From: an uncultured Planctomycetales bacterium
Lineage (GTDB): Bacteria > Planctomycetota > MHYJ01 > JACPRB01
DNA: 64,000 nucleotides
NCBI GenBank assembly: GCA_964468745.1
Contig: CAYXVY010000140.1
Span: 5,945 to 69,944 of the forward strand
Direction: 5' to 3'
Each line of letters opens with the position of its first letter. The first letter of the stretch is position 1. The notes below the pieces were generated by a model. The model was not told the DNA's origin, searched no databases, and was given only the letters and a program-made list of their open reading frames with translations. Positions 12,169 to 62,098 of this stretch are shown here, piece after piece. A program made the position numbers and the translations under genes.

Positions 12169-12382
12169 GGTGGCAGGGCAACCTTCGACGGGCGTAAGAG
12201 CGCCCCACAATGTTCTCTCTGTTTCCTCGGCTTCCTCGGTGTTTATCCCCGTCTCGTGTGGAGCGACCGAGATGCATCGGTCTTCCTGAGATCCCCTTGG
12301 CGTTCTTGGCGGCCCATCCCGAAGGTGCGTTGCCGGGTTGCGTCTCTGCGTCAATCGCCTCCACGGCGATCCGCGCTGCGCC

Positions 12383-14284
12383 CTACGTGGCCTGCTCCGC
12401 CTCCAGCCGCCGGAAGTGCGCCATGATCTGCGCGACGCACGCATCCACGTCCGCCTTGTCCGTGCGCACGACGAGATCAGCCTTCTCCGGCGCCTCGTAT
12501 GGCGCGTCGATCCCCGTCACCGACTTCACCTGCCCAGCCCGCGCCTTCTTGTAGATCCCCTTCGGATCGCGCTCCTCACAGACCGCGAGCGGGCAGTCGA
12601 CGAACACCTCGACGAACTCCCCCTGCCGCAGCCCGCCCCGCACGCGGTCGCGGTCCGCCTTCATCGGCGAAATTAGTGCGACAAGCACGATGAGGCCGGA
12701 GTCGCCGAACAGCTTCGCCACCTCGCCCACGCGACGCACGTTCTCCGCCCTGTCTTCCTCGCTGAACCCGAGGTTCGCATTGAGGCCGTGCCGCAGATTG
12801 TCTCCGTCGAGCAGGTACGTCTGGTATCCCGCGTCGAACAGCCGCCGCTCCAGCGCGACGGCGAGCGTGGACTTCCCCGACCCCGAGAGACCCGTGAACC
12901 AGAGGACGCGCCCATGATGGCCGGTGCGCCGCGCGCGCTCGTCCCGCGAGACCTGGCCCGACACGAACGAGATGTTATGGCTCTTGACGCCCGACAACTC
13001 CGAGCGCAGGTCCTTCGTCGCGGCCGTCGAGATGATCCCTCCCCCCTCGATCCGCGCCCCCGCGTGCAGCACGAAACGGCCGAGCTGCGGCACCCCGCCG
13101 AAGTCGTCGATCGCGATCGGCCGCTGCGTCTCGATCGTGACCTCCGCGATCTGGTTGCGCGCCACCGACTGCGCCTCGACGGCACCGAGCGTCGCAACGT
13201 CCACCACCTGGTGGATCTTCACGACGCGGCAGATGACTTCCTGCGACGTGATCTTCAGCAGGTACTCCTTGCCGGGCATGAGGTCCTGTTTCCCCAGCCA
13301 GAACAGGCGCGCGTCGAATCGGTCCGCCTCGACCGGCGCGTTCTCGAGATGCGACGCGATCTGCCCGCGCTCGACGAAGAGCTGCGCGTCGAGCGTGATC
13401 CCGACCGAGTCGCCCGCGTGCGCCTCCGTCACCGGCGGCGCGCTCCAGCGCTCGATCGTCTTGACGAAGCCGGTCTTGTTCCACGGCGAGAACACGAGCT
13501 GATCCCCGACGCGAAGCGTGCCGGACTCGATGCGGCCGGCGAAGATGCGCGTCGTTTCGTTCTGGCGGTAGACGTCCTGGATCGGGAAGCGCAGCGGGCC
13601 GTCGGTGATGGGGACGCGCGACTTGAAGCCGTGCATCGCCTCGGCCACCGTCGGGCCGGTGTACCACGGCATGTCCGTCGCGCGCGCGACGACGTTCGCG
13701 CCCGCCTTCGCGGAGATCGGAATGAACACCGATTTGCCCGCACCGGTTGCCTTCAGGTAGGCCCCGTATTCCTTCTCGATGTCGCGGAAGGTCTGCTCCG
13801 ACCACCCGACGAGATCCATCTTGTTGACGAGCACGGCGACCTGGTGGAGCCCGAGCAGGCGCAGCAGCAGCGCGTGACGGCGCGACTGCTCGCGGATCCC
13901 CTCGCGCGCGTCGACGAGGACGAGCGCGGCGTCGGCCGTCGAAGCCCCCGTGATCATGTTCTTCAGGAATTCTTCGTGCCCGGGCGCGTCGATGATGACG
14001 AACGGGCGTCCGTTGACGTGCATCCAGACGTGCGCGGCGTCGATCGTGATCCCCTGGTCGCGCTCGGCCTGCAGCGCGTCGAGGGCGAACGCGAACTCGA
14101 ATTCGAGACCGCGCTTCTCGGAGATCTTCCGGATCTGTTCGAGCTTCCCTTCCGGGAGCGAACCGGTGTCGTGCATGAGCCGGCCGACGAACGTCGACTT
14201 GCCGTGGTCGACATGGCCGAGCATCACCACGCGGACCGGTGCGGTCGTGGGGGTGACGGCCTTTTCTTTGGTAGTCACGGGCAT
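12383..14284 (-). CDS. cysNC: Bifunctional sulfate adenylyltransferase subunit 1 (GTPase, CysN) fused to adenylylsulfate (APS) kinase (CysC); NodQ-like
   Basis: N-terminal GTPase motifs ([23 protein letters not shown]) of CysN/EF-Tu-like. C-terminal APS kinase ([39 protein letters not shown]-loop kinase signature). 633 aa. Confidence 0.9.
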
Positions 14285-14290
14285 GATTCT

Positions 14291-14520
14291 TCCCGAAGAC
14301 CGCGGAGCTCGCGGAGTTGCCGCAGAGTCGCTTGGGGCGCGGAGAGCTTCCTTCGAGTCCGCCGGCCCGCGCGCAGCGCGGGCGCGGTCAGGCAGATGCC
14401 GGATCCGGAACGCTCGGCCCCTCTTCGCGAGCGTTCCGGATCCGGCATCTGCCTGACTGCTCGTGCGGGCAAAGCCCGCACGCCGGCGGACCTCTGCGCC
14501 CCGAACCCCTCTGCGGTTCC
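14291..14520. repeat. Copy 1 of a ~200-230-bp GC-rich palindromic structured repeat element; it lies in the intercistronic gap between cysD and cysNC
   Basis: Perfect 27-bp inverted repeat (caggcagatgccggatccggaacgctc / gagcgttccggatccggcatctgcctg, ~14389-14455) with loop ggcccctcttcgc. Flanking arms match the second copy at 35641-35845 in inverse orientation (e.g. ctccgcgccccaagcgact, gtgcgggc..gcccgcac). Confidence 0.75.
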
Positions 14521-14557
14521 TCCGCGCGCTCTGCGGTTTGTCTTCATCTTCTGCGGG

Positions 14558-15367
14558 TTACATGTATCCGGAGGTGCGAAGACGCTCGAACGCGTCCTCC
14601 GATTCCTGGTCCTGTGCTCGGCCCGATCTCTCGCTCGTCTTCGTGCGCCGCAGCTCCTCGACGATCTCCGCGACGCTCGTGGCGGTGGACTCGATCATGC
14701 CGGTGCACGGCGCGCATCCGAGGCTGCGGTAGCGGCGTCCGTCCTTCGCGTAGTAGAGGTCGATGATCGGGATCGACTCGCGCTGGATGTACTCCCACAC
14801 GTTGAGTTCGGTCCAGTGGAGCAGCGGATGAATGCGTATGTGCGTGCCGGCCGGGAATTCGGTCTGGTACTGGTCCCAGAATTCCGGGGGCGCGTCGCCG
14901 AAGTTCCACGTGAGGTTCTTGTCGCGCGGCGAGAAGTAGCGCTCCTTCGCGCGCGTGCTCTCCTCGTCGCGGCGGATGCCGAGGAGCAGGCCGTGATACC
15001 CCTTGAGTTCGAGGACCTGCTTGAGGCCCTCCGTCTTGAGCGAGGAGCAGCAGACGACGCGGCCGAGGGTGTGGTTCATCCCGCCGGCGAGGGCGGCGAC
15101 GTTCTTGCCGACCACGAGGTCGAGCCCCAGCTCCTTCGCGACGCGGTCGCGGTACTCGATCATCGACGGGATTTTGTAGGTCGTGTCGACGTGGATGACG
15201 GGGAACGGGACGGCGCCGAAGAATGCCTTGCGGATGAGCCAGAGCAGGACGGTCGAATCCTTGCCGATCGACCAGAGGCACCCGAGGTTTTTCAGCTTCG
15301 CGCGCGCCTCGCGGATGATGTAGACGCTCTGCGCTTCGAGGGCGTCCAAGGGGTCGCGGTGAGCCAT
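14558..15367 (-). CDS. cysD: Sulfate adenylyltransferase subunit 2 (CysD; PAPS reductase-like ATP sulfurylase small subunit)
   Basis: ORF 14558..15367(-). [12 protein letters not shown] (PP-loop), LGIRRDEE, and overall CysD architecture. The ATG is preceded by TTGAGA-n17-TATAAT-n11. Confidence 0.9.
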
Positions 15368-15384: not shown

Positions 15385-15486
15385 GGGGCAGGCGCGCGCG
15401 GTCTCAATGGCTGCGCGCGCGTGGGACGTGTGAGGTTGGAGCTTTGAAGGGCGGAACGCGGAACGGTGACCCACCCTTCCAACGAC

Positions 15487-15918
15487 CTACTCGCCGCGCC
15501 ACGCGAGTTCGGTGATGCGATCCGCGTTCAGAATGCGCACGTCGAATCGATCGAACACGTCCGCCCTGCCCAGGAGCAGGGGCGCTTGATCCGTCTGCGC
15601 CCACCCGATGTCCGCGTAGAAGCGATGGCGCCCGATCTTGAACTCGGCTCGACGCTTCACAACCCAGATCCAGCCGCCGATGCCCCCGGCTCGGAATACC
15701 CTGTCATGGGATTCCTTGCGAAATCCGAGCAGCTCGCCCACGCTCTTTGGAACCAGCGTGAAGTCCGATCCGGAGTCTACGAGCATCACGTGGGGCAACC
15801 AGTTGTTGCGCTGCGAGCGGATAAACACCATCGCCGAGGGACGATGGATCGGTCCATAAAGCTCCGACGTCCCGATCATGTAGGGAAATCGGATGGGCGG
15901 CCGCGTTGCCGAGTTCAT
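15487..15918 (-). CDS. Retropepsin-like (clan AA) aspartic protease
   Basis: MLVDSGSDFTLVP contains the D-S/T-G active-site triad of retroviral-type aspartyl proteases. Length is ~143 aa. Confidence 0.6.
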   Translation of the reverse strand: MNSATRPPIRFPYMIGTSELYGPIHRPSAMVFIRSQRNNWLPHVMLVDSGSDFTLVPKSVGELLGFRKESHDRVFRAGGIGGWIWVVKRRAEFKIGRHRFYADIGWAQTDQAPLLLGRADVFDRFDVRILNADRITELAWRGE

Positions 15919-15924
15919 TTCCGC

Positions 15925-16137
15925 CTAGACGATCAGGATGTCCTCGGTCGGCACCTTCAACAGGACCGGCTGGCGGCGCGGATGCCGCTTACGCGCTCGC
16001 TCGACGACCGTGCGCGCATTCTTTCCGGACGCCGCAACGCGGCAGTCGACGATGGCGACGTACAACCCCCGATATCGACTGAGGTCCGTACGCGACAGCC
16101 ACTCCATCGTCGGGTCCATTTTTCTCGCGGCTCCCAT
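15925..16137 (-). CDS. Small protein partner of the retropepsin-like protease (DUF-type, ~70 aa)
   Basis: Track ORF 15925..16230(-). A TAGAAT -10 at 16145-16150 sits 7 nt upstream of the internal ATG at 16137 (MGAARKMD...GLYVAIVDCRVAASGKNARTVVERARKRHPRRQPVLLKVPTEDILIV). It is immediately upstream of, and co-oriented with, the protease gene. Confidence 0.4.
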   Translation of the reverse strand: MGAARKMDPTMEWLSRTDLSRYRGLYVAIVDCRVAASGKNARTVVERARKRHPRRQPVLLKVPTEDILIV

Positions 16138-16202
16138 CGGCGTTATTCTACTGCGCCGCTTTATGGCGGGGTAGCGGATTCCATTCGGGGTAAGGAACGG
16201 TG

Positions 16203-16872
16203 ATCCGCACCTTCCACCTTCCAACCTCAAACCTCAAACTCCTGCCCCAGTCCCCACCCCGCCTCCGCTCCGCGCCCCACGTCACTCCGCGCTTCCTTGG
16301 CGCGCTCCGCGTTTTCTTCGGGAAGTCCCGGGATGAAGTCACCCGCGGGGTATCCGTTCGCCGCAGACCTTCCGGATTCAACGCAGAGGTCGCTGAAGGA
16401 TTTGGATGGGGGCGAAGTTTTTCCTCCACCATTCCAATGTCCTCTCGGTTACCTCGGCTGCCTCGGTGTTGTCGGAGGGGTGGGGCAGCAGGCGGAAACC
16501 TCGTGGATGACACTGGGCAATCCGAGCAAACAGAGAAGCCCATCCATGCGAGGGCGTTCCCTGCTCCTCCCCTGCGCGCTCCGCGCTTTCTTCGGATAGT
16601 CCCGGGATGAAGTCGCACGCGGAGTATCAATCCGCCTCAGAATGACCCGCACCTTCCAACTTCCAACTTCCAACTTCAAACCTCAAACGCCTCCCCCACT
16701 CCCCATCCCGCCTCCGCTCCGCGCCCCCAGCCACTCTTGTCCTCCTCAGCGGGCTCCGCGTTTTCTTCGGATAGTCCCAGGATGAAGTCGCACGCGGGGT
16801 ATCCGTTCGCCTCAGAATGACCCACACCTTCCAACTTCCAACTTCCAACCTCAAACCTTAGACTCGTCCCCC
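16203..16872. repeat. Tandem array of a ~173-bp repeat (3 full or partial copies plus a fourth partial copy running into the wzm start codon); copy 2 is interrupted by a ~185-bp insert
   Basis: Unit landmarks ccgcaccttccaac(ttccaac)n ctcaaac...ccgcctccgctccgcgcccc...gcgctccgcgttttcttcggatagtcccgggatgaagtcgcacgcggggtatccgttcgcctcagaatgacc recur at ~16203, 16563 (tail only), 16647 and 16820. Each unit has internal heptad microrepeats TTCCAAC x2-3 and CTCAAAC x2. Confidence 0.85.
16859..16864 (+). promoter_or_regulatory. TAGACT -10-like box 8 nt upstream of the wzm ATG (leaderless-type)
   Basis: ccttAGACTcgtccccc-ATG(16873) with no SD. The same TAGACT-n8/9-start arrangement occurs at fcl (47400) and gmd (about 48417). 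Confidence 0.4.
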
Positions 16873-17628
16873 ATGCCCTCCTGGTTCGAGCTCCTGCGCG
16901 CGCTCGTCGCGAAGGACTTCAAGGTCCGCTACAAGAGCACGGCGCTGGGGTTCGTGTGGTCGATCGCGAACCCGGTCATGTTCGGCCTGACGTTCTACGT
17001 GGTCTTCGAGAACGTCTTCCGCGGCGGGCAGAAGAACTTCCTCGTCTTCCTGCTCGCGGGGATGTTCCCGTGGCAGTGGTTTGCGAGCACCGTGGGCGGC
17101 GCGCCCGGCACGTTCGTCGGCAACGCGGGCCTGATCAAGAAGGTCCGGTTCCCGTGGATGCTGCTCCCGACGGCGGCCCTTGTCAGCAACCTCCTGCACT
17201 TCCTGCTGGCGCTGGCGGTGGCCGTCCCGCTCCTCGGGATGAAGGGGATCTGGCCGACACCGGTCTGGCTGATCGGCATTCCGGCCCTGCTCCTCATCCA
17301 GGGGGCGCTGACACTGGGAGTCGCGCTGCTGATCGCATCGATCAACGTCATCTTCCGCGACCTCGAGTACATCACGCAGATCGTGCTGCAGTTGGTATTC
17401 TTCCTCACGCCGATCTTCTACTCGGCAACGGCGCTGCCGGAGGGGACGCGGTCGATCCTGCGCTGGAATCCGATGTGCTACGTGATTCCGGCGTGGCAGG
17501 AGCTGGTGCTGGAGGGCCGCATGCCCTGGCAGACGGCGGGGATCGGCGCGGCGATCGCGGCGGCGACGTTGCTGATCGGCTACGGAGTCTATCGACGGAT
17601 GGAGTGGCGGCTGGCGGAGTCGCTATAG
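16873..17628 (+). CDS. wzm: ABC-2 type polysaccharide export permease (Wzm/TagG/KpsM-like)
   Basis: 251 aa, 6 predicted TM segments, ABC-2 family signature region (FVWSIANPVMFGLTFYVVF...). Confidence 0.8.
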   Translation: MPSWFELLRALVAKDFKVRYKSTALGFVWSIANPVMFGLTFYVVFENVFRGGQKNFLVFLLAGMFPWQWFASTVGGAPGTFVGNAGLIKKVRFPWMLLPTAALVSNLLHFLLALAVAVPLLGMKGIWPTPVWLIGIPALLLIQGALTLGVALLIASINVIFRDLEYITQIVLQLVFFLTPIFYSATALPEGTRSILRWNPMCYVIPAWQELVLEGRMPWQTAGIGAAIAAATLLIGYGVYRRMEWRLAESL

Positions 17629-17765
17629 AGACACATGGGTTTTCTAACGCAGAGATCGCTGATTTGTTTTGAGAGCCGGAGAGGCCCATCTCAAAGAGTT
17701 AGTCTGCGGTCTCTCCTTGTCCTCTTCTGCGCCCTCGGCGTTATTCGGGAAGATTGGGCGCGATC

Positions 17766-18527
17766 ATGAGTATCACGGCTGACCCCGCGGTTGAATTCCA
17801 CGACGTCGTCAAACGCTTCCACCGCGTCCACGCCCCGATGGGATTGAAGTACGCGATGCTGCATCCCGCGGAGTTCGTCCGCGTGTGGCGCTCGGCCCCG
17901 ACCTTCACGGCGCTCGACGGGGTGTCCTTCACGGTGAAGCGCGGAGAGTCGCTGGGGATCTGCGGCCGAAACGGCAGCGGGAAGAGCACGACGATGACGT
18001 TGATGGCGGGCGTAATGCGTCCGACGAGCGGCCGCGTGGTCGTGCGCGGGAGGATCGCGCCGCTGCTGGCGCTCGGCGCCGGTTTTCATCCGGACTTGAG
18101 CGGGTCGGACAACATCACGCTGAACGGGCTGCTCCTCGGCCTGTCCCGGCGGGAGATCGCGGAGCGTCGCGAGGCGATCATCGAGTTCGCCGGGCTGCGC
18201 GAGTTCATCAACGAGCCGATGCGCACATACTCCTCCGGCATGTTCATGAGGCTGGGGTTCGCGGTGGCGGCGCATACCGATCCCGAGGTCCTGCTGGTGG
18301 ACGAGCTGTTGTCGGTCGGCGACTTCGAGTTCCAGGCGAAGTGCAAGGCGAAGATGCACGAGTTCCGGAAGTCCGGCGTCACGATCGTCTTCGTGAGTCA
18401 CACGGTGGCGGAGATGGAAGCGATGTGCGATCGCGCGATCTGGCTCGACGGCGGGAAGGCGCGCATGGACGGCACGCCGGTCGAGGTGGACAAGGCTTAT
18501 CGCGGCGCGCTGGGGGCGGCGTCGTAG
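17766..18527 (+). CDS. wzt: ABC transporter ATP-binding protein for polysaccharide export (Wzt/TagH/KpsT-like); no C-terminal carbohydrate-binding extension
   Basis: Walker A GRNGSGKST, ABC signature YSSGMFMRLGFA, Walker B LLVDELLSVGD, H-loop. Track ORF starts at 17754 (TTG); the ATG at 17766 (MSITADPAVEFHDV) is preferred. Confidence 0.85.
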   Translation: MSITADPAVEFHDVVKRFHRVHAPMGLKYAMLHPAEFVRVWRSAPTFTALDGVSFTVKRGESLGICGRNGSGKSTTMTLMAGVMRPTSGRVVVRGRIAPLLALGAGFHPDLSGSDNITLNGLLLGLSRREIAERREAIIEFAGLREFINEPMRTYSSGMFMRLGFAVAAHTDPEVLLVDELLSVGDFEFQAKCKAKMHEFRKSGVTIVFVSHTVAEMEAMCDRAIWLDGGKARMDGTPVEVDKAYRGALGAAS

Positions 18528-35512: not shown

Positions 35513-35640
35513 TCTCTCAGGCCCTTTTAACGCCGAGAGCGCAGACGCGCTGCAGAAGAGAGCGCAGGTTTGTGGTGGAACGTGGGGCGTGGTCCTTCCG
35601 GAACTTCCGGACAACCGCTGAGCGCGCAGGGGCAAGCAGA

Positions 35641-35845
35641 GGGGTTCCGGGCGCTGAGGTGTCCGCCGCCGTGCGGGCAACGCCCGCACGAGCGGCCACG
35701 CAGAAGCCGTTTCCGAAACGCCCAGCCCTTCTTCGGGAGCGTTTCGGAAACGGCTTCTGCGTGGCCGCGCCCGCGCTACGCGCGGGCCGGCGGACCCGAA
35801 AGAAGCTCTCCGCGCCCCAAGCGACTCCTGTCCTCCTCTGCGTTC
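35641..35845. repeat. Copy 2 of the ~200-bp palindromic structured repeat element; lies between the convergent GT2 and GT2-GT-C genes
   Basis: Perfect 22-bp inverted repeat (gcagaagccgtttccgaaacgc / gcgtttcggaaacggcttctgc, ~35700-35760), loop ccagcccttcttcggga. Arms ggggttccgggcgctgaggtgtccgccgccgtgcgggcaacgcccgcac and gcgcgggccggcggacccgaaagaagctctccgcgccccaagcgact match copy 1 (inverted). Confidence 0.75.
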
Positions 35846-35893
35846 TCTGCGGTTGTCCGGCAGGCGAGCGGAGATTTGATGCCCCGCGTGTCT

Positions 35894-37990: not shown

Positions 37991-38374
37991 GAGTTCATGA
38001 GTTATAACCAAGCTCCACTGCCGACACCGTCTTGCCCGATCAACACAGAGGAATCCGAGGACACCGAGAAGATTGGGATGGGGTAGTTACGCCCGCTTGG
38101 AGGATACCTCCGGGCTGCGATATTGCGCGCTGCAATGGGATCATCGGACGCGACACCGAGATATCGGAGGGAACCGAGAAGAGGCCGTGGGGGGATCGCA
38201 GACCGCCTCGGTCGCCACGGTGACACGAAGATCTGCCGGCTCCCACGACGAGGAGTGAATGTCCCCTCCAAAAGCCTTCTCGGTTGACTCGGATGACTCG
38301 GTGTTCATCCGCGTCCTGCCGCGCTCATACTCACGTTCTCTGATTTCCGGTCTTCGCATCGGTATAGTGTCTCG

Positions 38375-47414: not shown

Positions 47415-48395
47415 ATGGCCGAGATTCTGAAATTCGATGCGCGCATCTTCGTAACGGGACACTTGGGTCTCGTCGGCTCCGCCATCCTGCGCCGGCTGCA
47501 GCGCGAGGGGTTTTCGAATCTCCTGACCGCCACGCGGAAGGAGCTCGATCTTCGTGATCAGCACGCAACCGAGACATGGTTCCGCAAGAACCGTCCGGAG
47601 TACGTCTTCCTCGTCGCCGGAACGGTCGGCGGCATTCACGCGAACTCGACGCGCCCCGCGACCTTCCTTTATGACAATCTGATGATTCACGCGACCGTCG
47701 TGCACGCCGCGCACCTGACGGACGTGAAAAAGCTCCTCTATCTCGGCAGCTCGTGCATCTATCCGCGCAACGCGCCGCAGCCGATGCGCGAGGAGTATCT
47801 TCTGACCGGCCCCCTCGAGCCGACGAACGAGGGGTATGCCGTGGCCAAGATCGCCGGCATCAAGATGTGCCAGTTCTACCGCCAGCAGTACGGCCGCAAC
47901 TTCATCTCCGCGATGCCGACGAACGTCTACGGACAGTTCGACAACTTCGACCTGCAGGACGCCCACGTCCTGCCCGCGCTGATCCGCAAGTTTCACGAGG
48001 CCGCGCGCGACACGTCGGGCCAGGTGACGATCTGGGGGTCCGGAACGCCGCGCCGCGAGTTCCTGCATGCCGATGACCTCGCCGAGGCATGCCTCTTTCT
48101 CATGCGCACGTATGAAGACGCCTCCCACGTGAACGTGGGGACCGGGATCGATCTGACAATCCGCGAGCTGGCGGAGACAATCCGTCGCATCGTGTCGCCG
48201 AACGTAAAGCTGGTCTTCGACAGCACCAAGCCCGACGGCATGCCGCGCAAGCTGCTCGACGTCGGCCGCCTGCAAAAACTCGGATGGAGCGCGCGCATCG
48301 GGCTCGAGGACGGCGTCCGCGACACGTACGCGTGGTTCGCAAAGAACTACGACGCGGCGGTGGCGCGCCGGCGATCGCACGCCGCCGTTCCGTAG
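47415..48395 (+). CDS. fcl: GDP-L-fucose synthase (GDP-4-keto-6-deoxy-D-mannose 3,5-epimerase/4-reductase)
   Basis: IFVTGHLGLVGSAILRRL, YAVAKIAG, LTGPLEPTNEGYAVAK, and the overall WcaG/Fcl pattern, ~326 aa. TAGACT -10 sits 9 nt upstream of the ATG. Confidence 0.85.
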   Translation: MAEILKFDARIFVTGHLGLVGSAILRRLQREGFSNLLTATRKELDLRDQHATETWFRKNRPEYVFLVAGTVGGIHANSTRPATFLYDNLMIHATVVHAAHLTDVKKLLYLGSSCIYPRNAPQPMREEYLLTGPLEPTNEGYAVAKIAGIKMCQFYRQQYGRNFISAMPTNVYGQFDNFDLQDAHVLPALIRKFHEAARDTSGQVTIWGSGTPRREFLHADDLAEACLFLMRTYEDASHVNVGTGIDLTIRELAETIRRIVSPNVKLVFDSTKPDGMPRKLLDVGRLQKLGWSARIGLEDGVRDTYAWFAKNYDAAVARRRSHAAVP

Positions 48396-61856: not shown

Positions 61857-62098
61857 TCGAAACGGAGATCAACACGCCCCCGGTTCCACCGAGCCGGGGG
61901 CTTTTTTGTTGGCCGAGCAAACAGAGAAGTAGGAAAACACCGAGAAAGCCGAGTCATCCGAGAGGCGATCTTGGATGGGACGGGAGAACTCCCCAAGTCC
62001 TCTCGGTTTTCTCGGATCTCTCGGTGTTGATCCGCTCGGGTTCCTCTTTCTCCCTCTATTCTCTCACGCCGCAGTTTACAGCCTCTCGGAGGTGCCTC

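Follow-up and report, generated by a model that had tools for sequence, protein, structure and literature searches.

The spacer between the divergently oriented cysD and wzm genes raises the question of whether the repeat array lying in front of a polysaccharide exporter is a dedicated regulatory device. For the window, by which we mean the whole stretch of 64,000 nucleotides analysed, the initial annotation had proposed a phase-variable or copy-number-variable control region, tandem binding sites for a regulator or tandem small RNAs. On balance the array is probably a non-coding mosaic, produced as the divergent promoter region between cysD and wzm was rearranged repeatedly, and not a device of its own. 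The repeats look like decaying duplicates of wzm's own promoter region, partly built from a dispersed element, of the kind left by ordinary genome turnover. A genetic switch at this array seems unlikely.

Anatomy of the array

The repeat upstream of wzm does exist where it had been placed; it is non-coding and lies far above chance expectation. A full copy (16194-16372) is followed by a foreign element of 183 bp (16373-16555) and then by 1.85 contiguous copies (16556-16878) that reach into the wzm ATG (Table 1). The stretch 16208-16367 is 85% identical to 16657-16816 over 160 nt with no gaps, and 16565-16703 is 88% identical to 16740-16878 over 139 nt. Identity among the copies is 85-90%, and exact direct repeats reach 25 nt at most. 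The unit had been estimated at ~173 bp and the array at ~3.5 copies; the period is in fact 175, and the repeat-derived DNA amounts to 496 nt, equal to 2.8 unit-equivalents. The array was also said to end exactly at the wzm start codon, and it does reach the ATG, but the homology between units 3 and 4 extends 6 nt into wzm (ATGCCC vs ACTCCC). The long-period array is absent from the Tandem Repeats Finder output because only 1.85 copies are contiguous. CRISPR arrays are made of short identical repeats, with unique spacers of similar length between them. The units found here are 175 bp long, 85-90% identical and contiguous, without spacers, and the earlier view that the array is not CRISPR-like stands.

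Table 1. Features of the cysD-wzm region and related elements in the window
Feature	Position	Strand	Description and basis
E2 copy A	14285-14557	-	full palindromic element filling the cysD-cysNC spacer; arm homologous to array block, abuts cysNC ATG
cysD	14558-15367	-	divergent from wzm; promoter TTGAGA-17-TATAAT at 15407-15379; Pfam PAPS_reduct, promoter scan
Inverted heptad tract	15428-15448	-	TTCAAAG CTCCAAC CTCACAC, read towards cysD; ~20-45 nt upstream of cysD -35 box
Isolated boundary fragment	15460-15483	+	GGAACGGTGACCCACCCTTCCAAC; direct repeat of 16194-16217, 75% identity; the two copies flank the cassette
Toxin-antitoxin-like cassette	15487-16137	-	two genes: DUF5678 protein (15925-16137) and clan-AA aspartyl-protease-like protein (15487-15918); Pfam, coding signal, promoter layout
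Unit 1 (full copy)	16194-16372	+	boundary GGAACGGTGATCCGCACC, 4-heptad tract, C-rich stretch, E2-arm-like block 16263-16342, tail; 85% identity to unit 3
Unit 1 heptad tract	16212-16239		TTCCAC C, TTCCAAC, then (CTCAAAC)2
Foreign 183-bp segment	16373-16555	+	in place of the 5' half of unit 2; matches dispersed CTCGG family
Unit 2 (3' half only)	16556-16640	+	E2-arm-like block and tail; 88% identity to corresponding part of unit 3
Unit 3 (full, 175 bp)	16641-16815	+	boundary, 5-heptad tract, C-rich stretch, E2-arm-like block 16712-16791, tail; alignment and profile HMM
Unit 3 heptad tract	16654-16688		(TTCCAAC)3, TTCAAAC, CTCAAAC
Unit 4 (5' part only)	16816-16872	+	boundary, heptad tract, putative wzm core promoter; 90% identity to head of unit 3
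Unit 4 heptad tract	16829-16863		(TTCCAAC)3, CTCAAAC, CTTAGAC
wzm	16873-17628	+	ABC-2 permease, 251 aa; Pfam ABC2_membrane 9e-15; start codon conserved in homologues
E2 copy F (small)	17629-17765	+	forms the wzm-wzt spacer; arm 17714-17752 resembles array block
wzt	17766-18527	+	ABC ATPase; Pfam ABC_tran 2e-19
E2 copy B	35530-35890	+	second full element, between two minus-strand genes; 80.6% identity to copy A over 217 nt

The heptad microrepeats TTCCAAC and CTCAAAC are present in the unit tracts as had been described, with four heptads in unit 1 and five each in units 3 and 4. A degenerate double heptad was found at only four tracts in the 64 kb, all within the cysD-wzm spacer (12 matches vs 0.13 expected), and within the window the heptads and the C-rich part of the unit are both confined to this spacer. 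No match was obtained when viral_contigs was scanned with the heptad pattern. An isolated fragment of the unit boundary had been noticed at ~15452 and was located slightly further on, beside a two-gene cassette whose DUF5678 gene has a leaderless-type TAGAAT -10 box. No transposase or integrase domain was detected among the ~39 ORFs scanned (seven ORFs at 56-64 kb were left out) and no target-site duplications were evident. Integrons have attC sites, imperfect hairpins with RYYYAAC and GTTRRRY cores, together with an IntI integrase. An integron-like cassette array was rejected, as TTCCAAC and CTCAAAC do not fit RYYYAAC, the boundaries form no hairpins and the scanned ORFs encode no integrase.

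Two dispersed palindromic families

The conserved GC-rich block attributed to each unit is present, but it also occurs outside the array: the block is one solo arm of E2, an intergenic palindrome with dispersed copies. Occurrence of the same array at many unrelated loci with no link to wzm had been named as evidence against a role in exporter control, and this is seen in part: the ~75-nt block, which is the only portion of the unit recurring elsewhere in the window, is found before cysNC (cysD-cysNC spacer), before wzt (wzm-wzt spacer) and at 35.8 kb in a leave-out HMM analysis. A profile HMM made from the non-array E2 copies alone matches 16717-16784 at E=2.2e-6 and another array block at 1.4e-4, along with the copy upstream of wzt. 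Full members of the family are giant palindromes of 140-360 nt. Copy A folds as a giant hairpin (-201 kcal/mol, z -13.3) while the array blocks alone are unfolded (z 0 to +0.6), and the blocks are therefore solo arms. Copy A also carries a 90-codon bridging ORF, which begins 10 nt downstream of the cysD stop and extends 7 nt beyond the cysNC ATG. In copy F a 44-codon ORF begins 6 nt past the wzm stop and overlaps the start of wzt in an ATGA. These bridging ORFs are seen in 1.6-5.3% and 3.4-7.5% of shuffles, respectively. The conserved block TTCGGNNAGTCCCNGGATGAAGTC had no match in genome_contigs, metagenome_contigs or viral_contigs, which therefore do not include the source genome.

Copy 2 of the unit had been described as disrupted by a ~185-bp insert. 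The insert does contain a CTCGG x3 element, but the segment is 183 bp long and replaces the 5' half of copy 2, so that this is no simple interruption. It belongs to a second dispersed palindromic family (CTCGG). Its recognizable parts are a left motif CGCAGAGG (16380-16396), the CTCGG x3 arm (16439-16471) and CCGAGCAAACAGAGAAG (16522-16538), and it matches 12208-12243, 38278-38312, 61997-62029 and 61913-61929 in the window. A hairpin fold at 16376-16480 has a z of -2.8, and the CTCGG pair one of -4.5.

Promoter, coding potential and comparison with relatives

The last partial unit was expected to supply the -10 box of wzm, and a plausible one, TAGACT (16859-16864), is indeed found 8 nt before a correctly placed and conserved ATG at 16873. 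The putative core promoter, as read from the sequence, would be completed by a -35-like TTCCAA (16836-16841) and a 17-nt spacer. TTCCAA matches the -35 consensus at only 3/6 positions and is not conserved, the sister genome having TTCCCC there. In a sigma-70 scan no plus-strand promoter was found in the array, and the proposed wzm promoter scores below the scan threshold. A TAnnnT 6-11 nt ahead of the start is present in 6/24 genes of the window, and the layout seen at wzm also occurs at cysD, at the DUF5678 gene and at the genes starting at 47415, 53766 and 56006. The equivalent -10 positions upstream are degenerate (CAAACT with start-equivalent AGT in unit 1, CAAACG with ACT in unit 3), and TAGACT together with ATG is intact only in the wzm-proximal copy. 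We infer that this proximal copy would act as the wzm promoter and that the upstream copies would be silent.

A coding array was rejected on the grounds of codon usage, GC3 and the phase of substitutions between copies. The GC3 of the array ORFs is 0.54-0.68 vs 0.85-0.94 in the neighbouring genes, codon scores are <=0 for all of them but one (52 aa, minus strand), and the substitutions between copies are evenly spread over the codon phases (9/9/6 and 7/5/5). The C-rich stretch as a duplicated 5' coding fragment of wzm was likewise rejected, its alignment scores being within the shuffle range. Short ORFs joined by ATGA/GTGA overlaps form a chain that begins at 15466/16200 and reaches a stop 11 nt short of the wzm ATG; it was given little weight, as an xTGA junction is found about every 110 nt and chains of five links are present elsewhere in the window.

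The initial annotation had named an assembly artefact as the result that would overturn it. Two Logan assemblies, from populations that are maybe not independent, match the array base for base: contigs L001 (SRR9952630) and L002 (SRR9952632) have zero gaps or mismatches to the window through the array. L001 spans it entirely and L002 begins at 16191, the array edge, which is the one point that might suggest a collapsed or expanded repeat. The longest exact repeat (25 nt) is shorter than k=31 and the copies are 10-15% diverged, therefore reads and 31-mers place the copies uniquely, and such an artefact is hardly conceivable.

The expected variation in copy number was observed between lineages, the sister lineage L003 having ~1 unit vs ~2.8 here, but no length difference was seen among assemblies. 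The sister genome has ~91% nucleotide identity in cysD and wzm and carries one diverged orthologous unit, which aligns at 69% (score 163 vs a null maximum of 86). This unit has the same five-heptad layout and retains TAAACT at the -10 position; its heptads 2-3 are degenerate (TTCCCCC, TTCACAC) and the cysD-side tract is absent. At the cassette spot a different toxin-antitoxin-like cassette is found in the opposite orientation. In this comparison of two lineages, the paralogues of the window are closer to one another than to the sister copy, and the duplication is therefore lineage-specific.

In more distant relatives cysD and wzm are only 121 bp apart; wzm and wzt overlap in relative L004, and cysD and cysNC overlap in L004 and L083. 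Wzm-based locus searches of both large collections yielded 75 loci, none closer than 58% identity and none with heptads or E2 arms. Exact-protein look-ups with Wzm, CysD and the protease returned only the same strain and one sister contig, and for a CysD relative at 79% identity the flanking sequence was too short to inform. The closest Wzm relatives that carry a name come from Planctomycetota metagenome-assembled genomes, at 40-52% identity.

Origin of the array and its meaning

The following order of events may account for the array. The ancestral wzm promoter-proximal module would have consisted of a C-rich stretch, a solo E2 arm and a tract of five heptads, the last of which provides the -10 box in a promoter of leaderless type. 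In the lineage of the window this ~175-bp module was presumably duplicated head-to-tail, giving about two extra copies, and the likely cause is unequal exchange or slippage between heptad and boundary sequences. A palindromic element of the CTCGG family would later have overwritten the 5' half of copy 2, and the DUF5678/aspartyl-protease cassette now occupies the distal boundary of the units. Transcription of wzm-wzt would be driven by the proximal copy only, with its TAGACT and ATG, and the upstream copies would be decaying pseudo-promoters, at most spacer or insulator DNA that separates the promoters of the cassette and of wzm.

Some observations can be held against such a neutral mosaic. 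Besides the poor -35 match given above, the ~500 nt of repeat kept at 85-90% identity might indicate some constraint, and the confinement of the heptads to the cysD-wzm spacer, with an inverted tract beside the cysD promoter, could denote a shared operator instead of junk. The heptad tracts would then bind a regulator co-ordinating the divergent cysD-cysNC and wzm-wzt operons, and the extra copies would serve as cooperative, looping or titrating sites. In favour of this are the restriction of the heptads to four tracts within the 64 kb, every one of them in this spacer, the position of the inverted tract ~20-45 nt upstream of the cysD -35 box, the overlap of the proximal tract with the wzm -35 box and spacer, and the functional link between sulfate-activation and exporter operons in a sulfated-polysaccharide locus. 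We nevertheless consider it unlikely, since heptads 2-3 are degenerate and the cysD-side tract is missing in the sister genome, relatives at 58% identity have no heptads, tracts 1 and 3 lie ~650 and 200 nt from any promoter, and no candidate regulator was identified. The boundary-plus-heptad sequence TGAYCCRCMCCTTCCAAC could alternatively be an attachment-like site for cassette or palindrome insertion and exchange, with the units as cassette-like fillers. The boundary recurs as 24-nt direct repeats on both sides of the cassette, with the inverted heptad tract just outside the left copy, an unrelated, oppositely oriented cassette of this kind occupies the same spot in the sister genome, and relatives have 121 bp there; the flanking repeats are only 75% identical, however, the heptads misfit integron core sites, no integrase or transposase is among the scanned ORFs and the cassette boundaries of the sister genome, one of only two genomes compared, show no clear copies of the site. 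A recombination site of this sort is therefore improbable. Slightly less so, though still rather doubtful, is a wider proposal in which the cysD-wzm spacer is a dedicated insertion hotspot of this attachment-like type, with DUF5678/aspartyl-protease cassettes swapped between strains, and E2 an undescribed MIRU-like family of giant palindromes that inserts at start codons, its bridging ORFs preserving downstream expression; the tandem units would be the footprints.

Transcription of the array offers another possibility: the units could be tandem C-rich small RNAs, as the initial annotation had considered, or form a long translated leader that brings ribosomes to wzm and shields the transcript from Rho. 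Each block contains a small GC hairpin with a T-run behind it (one scan match), the plus strand is C-rich and G-poor (C/G 2.0-2.5), and there are the chain of ATGA/GTGA-linked short ORFs and the intra-operon E2 copies with bridging ORFs. The evidence for small RNAs nevertheless failed to appear. Rfam gave nothing over the region at E<=10 and nothing over the whole window at gathering thresholds, units 3-4 show no excess folding on either strand (z +1.3), the upstream -10-like boxes are degenerate, and in place of a promoter and terminator per unit the scans found no sigma-70-like plus-strand promoter upstream and one weak terminator-like site only. Moreover, five-link ORF chains arise elsewhere in the window by chance and the differences between mini-ORF peptides are mostly non-synonymous, and we regard a transcribed element as quite improbable. 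Still weaker is the case for a contingency locus, in which heptad slippage or unequal crossing-over of the 175-bp units would switch or tune wzm expression. Heptad number does differ between unit 1 (four) and units 3 and 4 (five), as does unit number between the window and the sister genome, and there is a precedent in Haemophilus influenzae, where seven-base promoter repeats modulate hmwA (PMC2424069). As in hmw1A/hmw2A (PMC2424069, PMC8262952), the heptanucleotide direct repeats lie in the promoter region of a cell-surface-related gene. The hmwA promoters have 9-28 such repeats (PMC2424069), whereas here there are 2-3 plus 2 imperfect ones, (TTCCAAC)2-3 plus (CTCAAAC)1-2 with variant heptads, and no long uninterrupted slippage-prone tract. 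No variation in tract length was seen: the sequence is identical in the window, L001 and L002, and either lineage has five heptads in its proximal tract. The TTCCAAC repeats coincide with the putative -35 hexamer or precede it, the -35 and -10 boxes have only a single CTCAAAC heptad between them, and a change in TTCCAAC number would therefore regenerate an unchanged -35/-10 spacing, which would leave repeat number uncoupled from promoter spacing. With units 10-15% diverged and sharing <=25 nt of exact identity, the phase variation originally suggested is not borne out and seems very improbable.

Among known systems, the array can be compared with the mycobacterial MIRU/MIRU-VNTR (Supply et al. 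1997, as summarised in PMC3184786 and PMC12548453), which are intergenic units of 40-100 bp that contain an internal ORF coupled to the start codon that follows (PMC12548453). MIRU may share with the present repeats the presence of intergenic units at several loci, sometimes in tandem and in copy numbers that differ between related lineages, and the location at gene starts inside operons with an internal ORF bridging to the downstream start, here in E2 copies A and F. The head-to-tail intergenic arrangement is also found, as 1.85 contiguous copies and one separate full copy at a period of 175. In contrast to MIRU, the unit is longer (175 bp) and composite, being made of heptads, a C-rich stretch and one palindrome arm, the family members are palindromes of 140-360 nt and there is no sequence relationship. 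The ORF chain of the array itself is statistically indistinguishable from chance, and mobility and within-species VNTR behaviour are hypothetical here. REP/BIME, REPIN and MITE such as the Correia elements of Neisseria are likewise short, non-coding, palindromic, GC-rich multicopy repeats, restricted to intergenic DNA and inserted next to or between genes (PMC3116915, PMC3733652, PMC10969869), and members of the E2 and CTCGG families form long hairpins (z -13.3, -4.5). The array units differ in being solo arms in direct tandem order that remain unfolded, the arms consist of short motifs repeated periodically (CCGCAGAG, or CTCGG every 9 nt), and neither a GTAG/CGTC tag nor a target-site duplication nor, among ~39 ORFs scanned, a cognate RAYT/IS transposase was found. 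An ordinary tandem promoter duplication would also give head-to-tail copies ending at a gene start, the proximal one intact and the others gathering substitutions and insertions; the difference is that the segment here includes part of a dispersed element and has microsatellite-like heptads at its borders.

If it is indeed a mosaic, the locus provides an example of a divergent promoter region that has grown from the 121 bp of relatives to 1.5 kb, through tandem duplication, small palindromic elements and a toxin-antitoxin-like cassette, with the exporter gene undisrupted. It also advises caution, since a striking repeat before a surface-polysaccharide exporter need not be a switch. The by-products may prove more useful than the array, namely two lineage-specific palindromic intergenic families in an uncultured, probably Planctomycetota-related bacterium. 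Should the E2-type elements prove mobile, they would extend a MIRU-like insertion strategy to a distant phylum.

Structure and integrity of the repeat array

A large polysaccharide locus occupies the window. It holds sulfate-activation genes (cysD and a fused cysN/cysC gene, cysNC), a glycosyltransferase-sulfotransferase fusion along with many other glycosyltransferases, a Bac_transf sugar transferase, a Wzx-like flippase, a GDP-mannose dehydratase, epimerases and the Wzm/Wzt exporter. The closest named relatives of Wzm are found in Planctomycetota metagenome-assembled genomes (40-52% identity). There is one close relative, the sister genome L003 (GCA_040960765.1, contig JBFOMR010082213), which has about 91% nucleotide identity to the window in cysD and wzm.

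The intergenic region between cysD and wzm measures 1.5 kb and its right-hand 680 bp are repetitive. In ungapped comparisons 16208-16367 is 85% identical to 16657-16816, and 16565-16703 is 88% identical to 16740-16878. The start-to-start spacing of the latter pair is 175 nt and not the ~173 bp of the initial annotation, which had also counted about 3.5 copies. The repeat-derived DNA of units u1 to u4 amounts to 496 nt, or 2.8 unit-equivalents, and Tandem Repeats Finder reports only the 7-nt microrepeats (heptads) because just 1.85 copies are contiguous. The array had been said to end exactly at the wzm start codon; u4 does reach 16872, but its homology to u3 extends to 16878, 6 nt inside wzm. 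An isolated unit-boundary fragment, previously placed at ~15452, was located slightly further on (see table). Double heptads of the TTCCAAC/CTCAAAC type gave 12 matches in the 64-kb window against 0.13 expected, in four tracts, every one in the cysD-wzm spacer.

Features of the cysD-wzm region and of the dispersed elements (window positions)
Feature	Position	Strand	Remarks
E2 bridging ORF	14275-14547	minus	90 codons; ends 7 nt past cysNC ATG
E2 copy	14285-14557	minus	fills cysD-cysNC spacer
cysD	14558-15367	minus	divergent from wzm; TATAAT 11 nt to start, TTGAGA at 17 nt, 11/12 consensus matches
Heptad tract, inverted	15428-15448		
Unit-boundary fragment	15460-15483		
Two-gene cassette	15487-16137	minus	DUF5678 protein and clan-AA aspartyl-protease-like protein; between array and cysD
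DUF5678 gene	start 16137	minus	TAGAAT, 7 nt to start
u1	16194-16372		full unit
Heptad tract	16212-16239		
Insert	16373-16555		unrelated segment, 183 bp
u2	16556-16640		3' half of unit
u3	16641-16815		full unit
Heptad tract	16654-16688		
u4	16816-16872		5' part of unit
Heptad tract	16829-16863		
wzm	16873-17628	plus	TAGACT at 16859-16864
E2 copy	17629-17765		wzm-wzt spacer
E2 bridging ORF	17635-17769	plus	44 codons; ATGA overlap with wzt start
wzt	17766-18527		
E2 copy	35530-35890		
CTCGG copy	12208-12243	plus	
CTCGG copy	16439-16471	plus	in array insert
CTCGG copy	38038-38069	inverted	
CTCGG copy	38278-38312	plus	
CTCGG copy	61936-61963	inverted	
CTCGG copy	61997-62035	plus	
Gene	start 47415	plus	TAGACT, 9 nt to start
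Gene	start 53766	plus	TAGAAT, 6 nt to start
Gene	start 56006	plus	TATAAT, 9 nt to start

The array is not an assembly artefact. Logan contigs of two runs (L001, SRR9952630; L002, SRR9952632) agree with the window throughout the array, with zero gaps or mismatches, and no exact direct repeat within it exceeds 25 nt, less than the 31-mers of these assemblies. L001 differs from the window at just two positions, both within cysNC. The two samples may not be independent populations, and their agreement indicates a real structure, not natural invariance. L002 starts at 16191, exactly at the junction of the cassette and u1, where low coverage or a population variant could be the cause.

A coding function of the array was rejected on GC3, codon-usage scores and the codon-phase spread of differences. 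Third-position GC is 0.54-0.68 in the array ORFs against a GC3 of 0.85-0.94 in the flanking genes, codon-usage scores are at or below zero with the sole exception of a 52-aa minus-strand ORF (+0.23), and differences between copies fall evenly on the three codon phases (9/9/6 and 7/5/5). On the plus strand, short ORFs with ATGA/GTGA overlaps form a chain that begins at 15466/16200 and whose last stop codon lies 11 nt upstream of the wzm ATG. The chain was discounted because overlaps of this type turn up roughly every 110 nt in the GC-rich DNA of the window, where five-link chains are also found elsewhere. The C-rich stretch of the unit is not recognisable as a copy of the 5' coding region of wzm.

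Dispersed elements and the cassette

The E2 family of palindromic intergenic elements was traced through a short match from the array insert to the wzm-wzt spacer. DNA similar to the GC-rich block of the array (CTCCGCGCCCCCAGCCACTCTTGTCCTCCTCAGCGGGCTCCGCGTTTTCTTCGG...) lies immediately before the wzt ATG (17714-17752), in front of the cysNC start codon (14285-14348, minus strand), and at 35803-35884. A profile built from the cysNC and 35.8-kb copies alone and searched against the whole window matched u3 (E=2.2e-6), u1 (E=1.4e-4) and the copy upstream of wzt (E=0.014). The block reported as conserved does recur in the units, but it belongs to a dispersed family. Full copies are large palindromes with arms of short repeats (CCGCAGAG versus CTCTGCGG/CTCCGCG) around three hairpins; where the long central stem differs between them, the two arms show matching changes. 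A folding energy of -201 kcal/mol (z -13.3) was obtained for the cysD-cysNC copy, which shares 80.6% identity with the one at 35.6-35.8 kb over 217 nt. The array blocks alone give no folding signal (z 0 to +0.6); each unit therefore contains a solo E2 arm.

The family was detected in none of the 75 loci of other organisms and only faintly in L003. All three E2 sites are insertions with respect to more distant genomes, where the flanking genes overlap. The genes cysD and cysNC overlap in the relatives L004 and L005 (58% Wzm identity), as do wzm and wzt, whereas the window has gaps of 273 and 137 nt between the members of these pairs. The spacer downstream of cysD in L003 (L003 1-141, read on the minus strand) holds another palindromic element, with TCATTGA-type repeats of period ~9-10 nt, unrelated to E2 in sequence and similar in design.

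The 183-bp insert belongs to a second dispersed family, with a ~33-nt motif of three CTCGG repeats at a 9-nt period (GTCCTCTCGGTTnnCTCGGnTnnCTCGGTGTT), and the CTCGG-type element first noticed in it was confirmed. Like REPINs, these elements often occur as inverted pairs forming interrupted hairpins; the pair at 61.9 kb forms a long one (z -4.5) and the array copy likewise folds (z -2.8). No Rfam family matches the element. Both families appear lineage-specific.

Direct repeats of the unit boundary, 24 nt long and 75% identical, flank the cassette, and the inverted heptad tract lies just outside the left one. L003 has another pair of this type (DUF5678-type and clan-AA protease-like) at this site, in the opposite orientation (L003 1074-1743, plus strand), and thus the cysD-wzm spacer appears to be an insertion hotspot. 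The two proteases have no BLASTP similarity (E=2.2). The unrelated sequences and opposite orientations of the two cassettes suggest cassette turnover.

The putative wzm promoter and its counterpart in the sister genome

Homologues start at the same Met-Pro, which gives the wzm start codon good support. The TAGACT box lies 8 nt upstream of this codon, and the intervening DNA has no Shine-Dalgarno-like sequence. A TAnnnT box 6-11 nt before the start was present in 6 of the 24 starts examined, against ~1.4 expected on a rough composition estimate. Because this layout is shared, the leaderless-type promoter which the initial annotation placed in the last partial unit is plausible. Such boxes without a Shine-Dalgarno sequence suggest that leaderless or near-leaderless mRNAs are frequent in this organism. 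The putative -35-like hexamer TTCCAA (heptad 2, 17-nt spacer) agrees with just three of six consensus positions, and L003 does not conserve it. The upstream copies have CAAACT (u1) and CAAACG (u3) at the -10 position and AGT or ACT at the start position, and look like inactivated copies.

L003 has one diverged unit upstream of wzm. Its positions 1831-2018 are 69% identical to 16692-16872 of the window (score 163, shuffle maximum 86), with the five-heptad layout kept (TTCCAAC TTCCCCC TTCACAC CTCAAAC CTTAAAC) and TAAACT in place of TAGACT. The window copies are 85-90% identical to each other, closer than to the L003 copy, so the extra copies arose in the window lineage after the split or have been homogenised since. 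In L004 and L005 cysD and wzm stand back to back, 121 bp apart, with no heptads. The wzm gene call of L003 (2019-2492) ends at 157 aa though DNA homology goes on, which may be due to a frameshift or sequencing error.

Origin and possible roles of the array

An evolutionary reading of the array is best supported over a mechanistic one. A promoter-proximal module, made of the C-rich stretch, the E2 solo arm and the heptad tract holding the -10 box, would predate the split from L003 and would have been duplicated in tandem in the lineage of the window. A CTCGG element would have invaded the duplicated module afterwards, the cassette now being at the distal boundary, and the proximal copy alone would stay a working promoter. 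The phase variation proposed earlier is disfavoured: known slippage-prone promoter repeats are much longer than the heptad tracts, with 9-28 copies in hmwA (PMC2424069). In addition, the proximal tract has the same number of heptads in both lineages, and gain or loss of TTCCAAC would restore identical -35/-10 spacing. About 25 identical bases are the minimum for RecA-dependent exchange, and the 175-bp copies share no more than 25.

Tandem small RNAs, also put forward earlier, are disfavoured and a known RNA was rejected: Rfam gave no matches in the array region even at E<=10 and none across the whole window at gathering thresholds, and u3-u4 folds no better than shuffled sequence on either strand (z +1.3). 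The chief remaining alternative takes the heptad tracts to be operator sites common to the two divergent operons, cysD-cysNC and wzm-wzt. Confinement of the tracts to the spacer and the inverted tract adjoining the cysD promoter favour it; the decayed heptads of L003 and the lack of a cysD-side tract there count against it.

On the duplication reading, the array adds one more example of sequence types already known, namely promoter-region tandem duplication and MITE/REP/MIRU-like interspersed elements, and not a new class. Each of the two operon-internal E2 copies has one ORF starting 6-10 nt past the upstream stop and ending at the downstream start codon, as arises by chance in 1.6-5.3% and 3.4-7.5% of dinucleotide-preserving shuffles, depending on the start codons allowed. 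Mycobacterial MIRUs are likewise described as inserting at start codons and as carrying an ORF of their own that is coupled to the gene downstream (PMC12548453; PMC3184786). The likeness is suggestive of a MIRU-like translational bridging by E2, and this arrangement is worth genome-wide attention.
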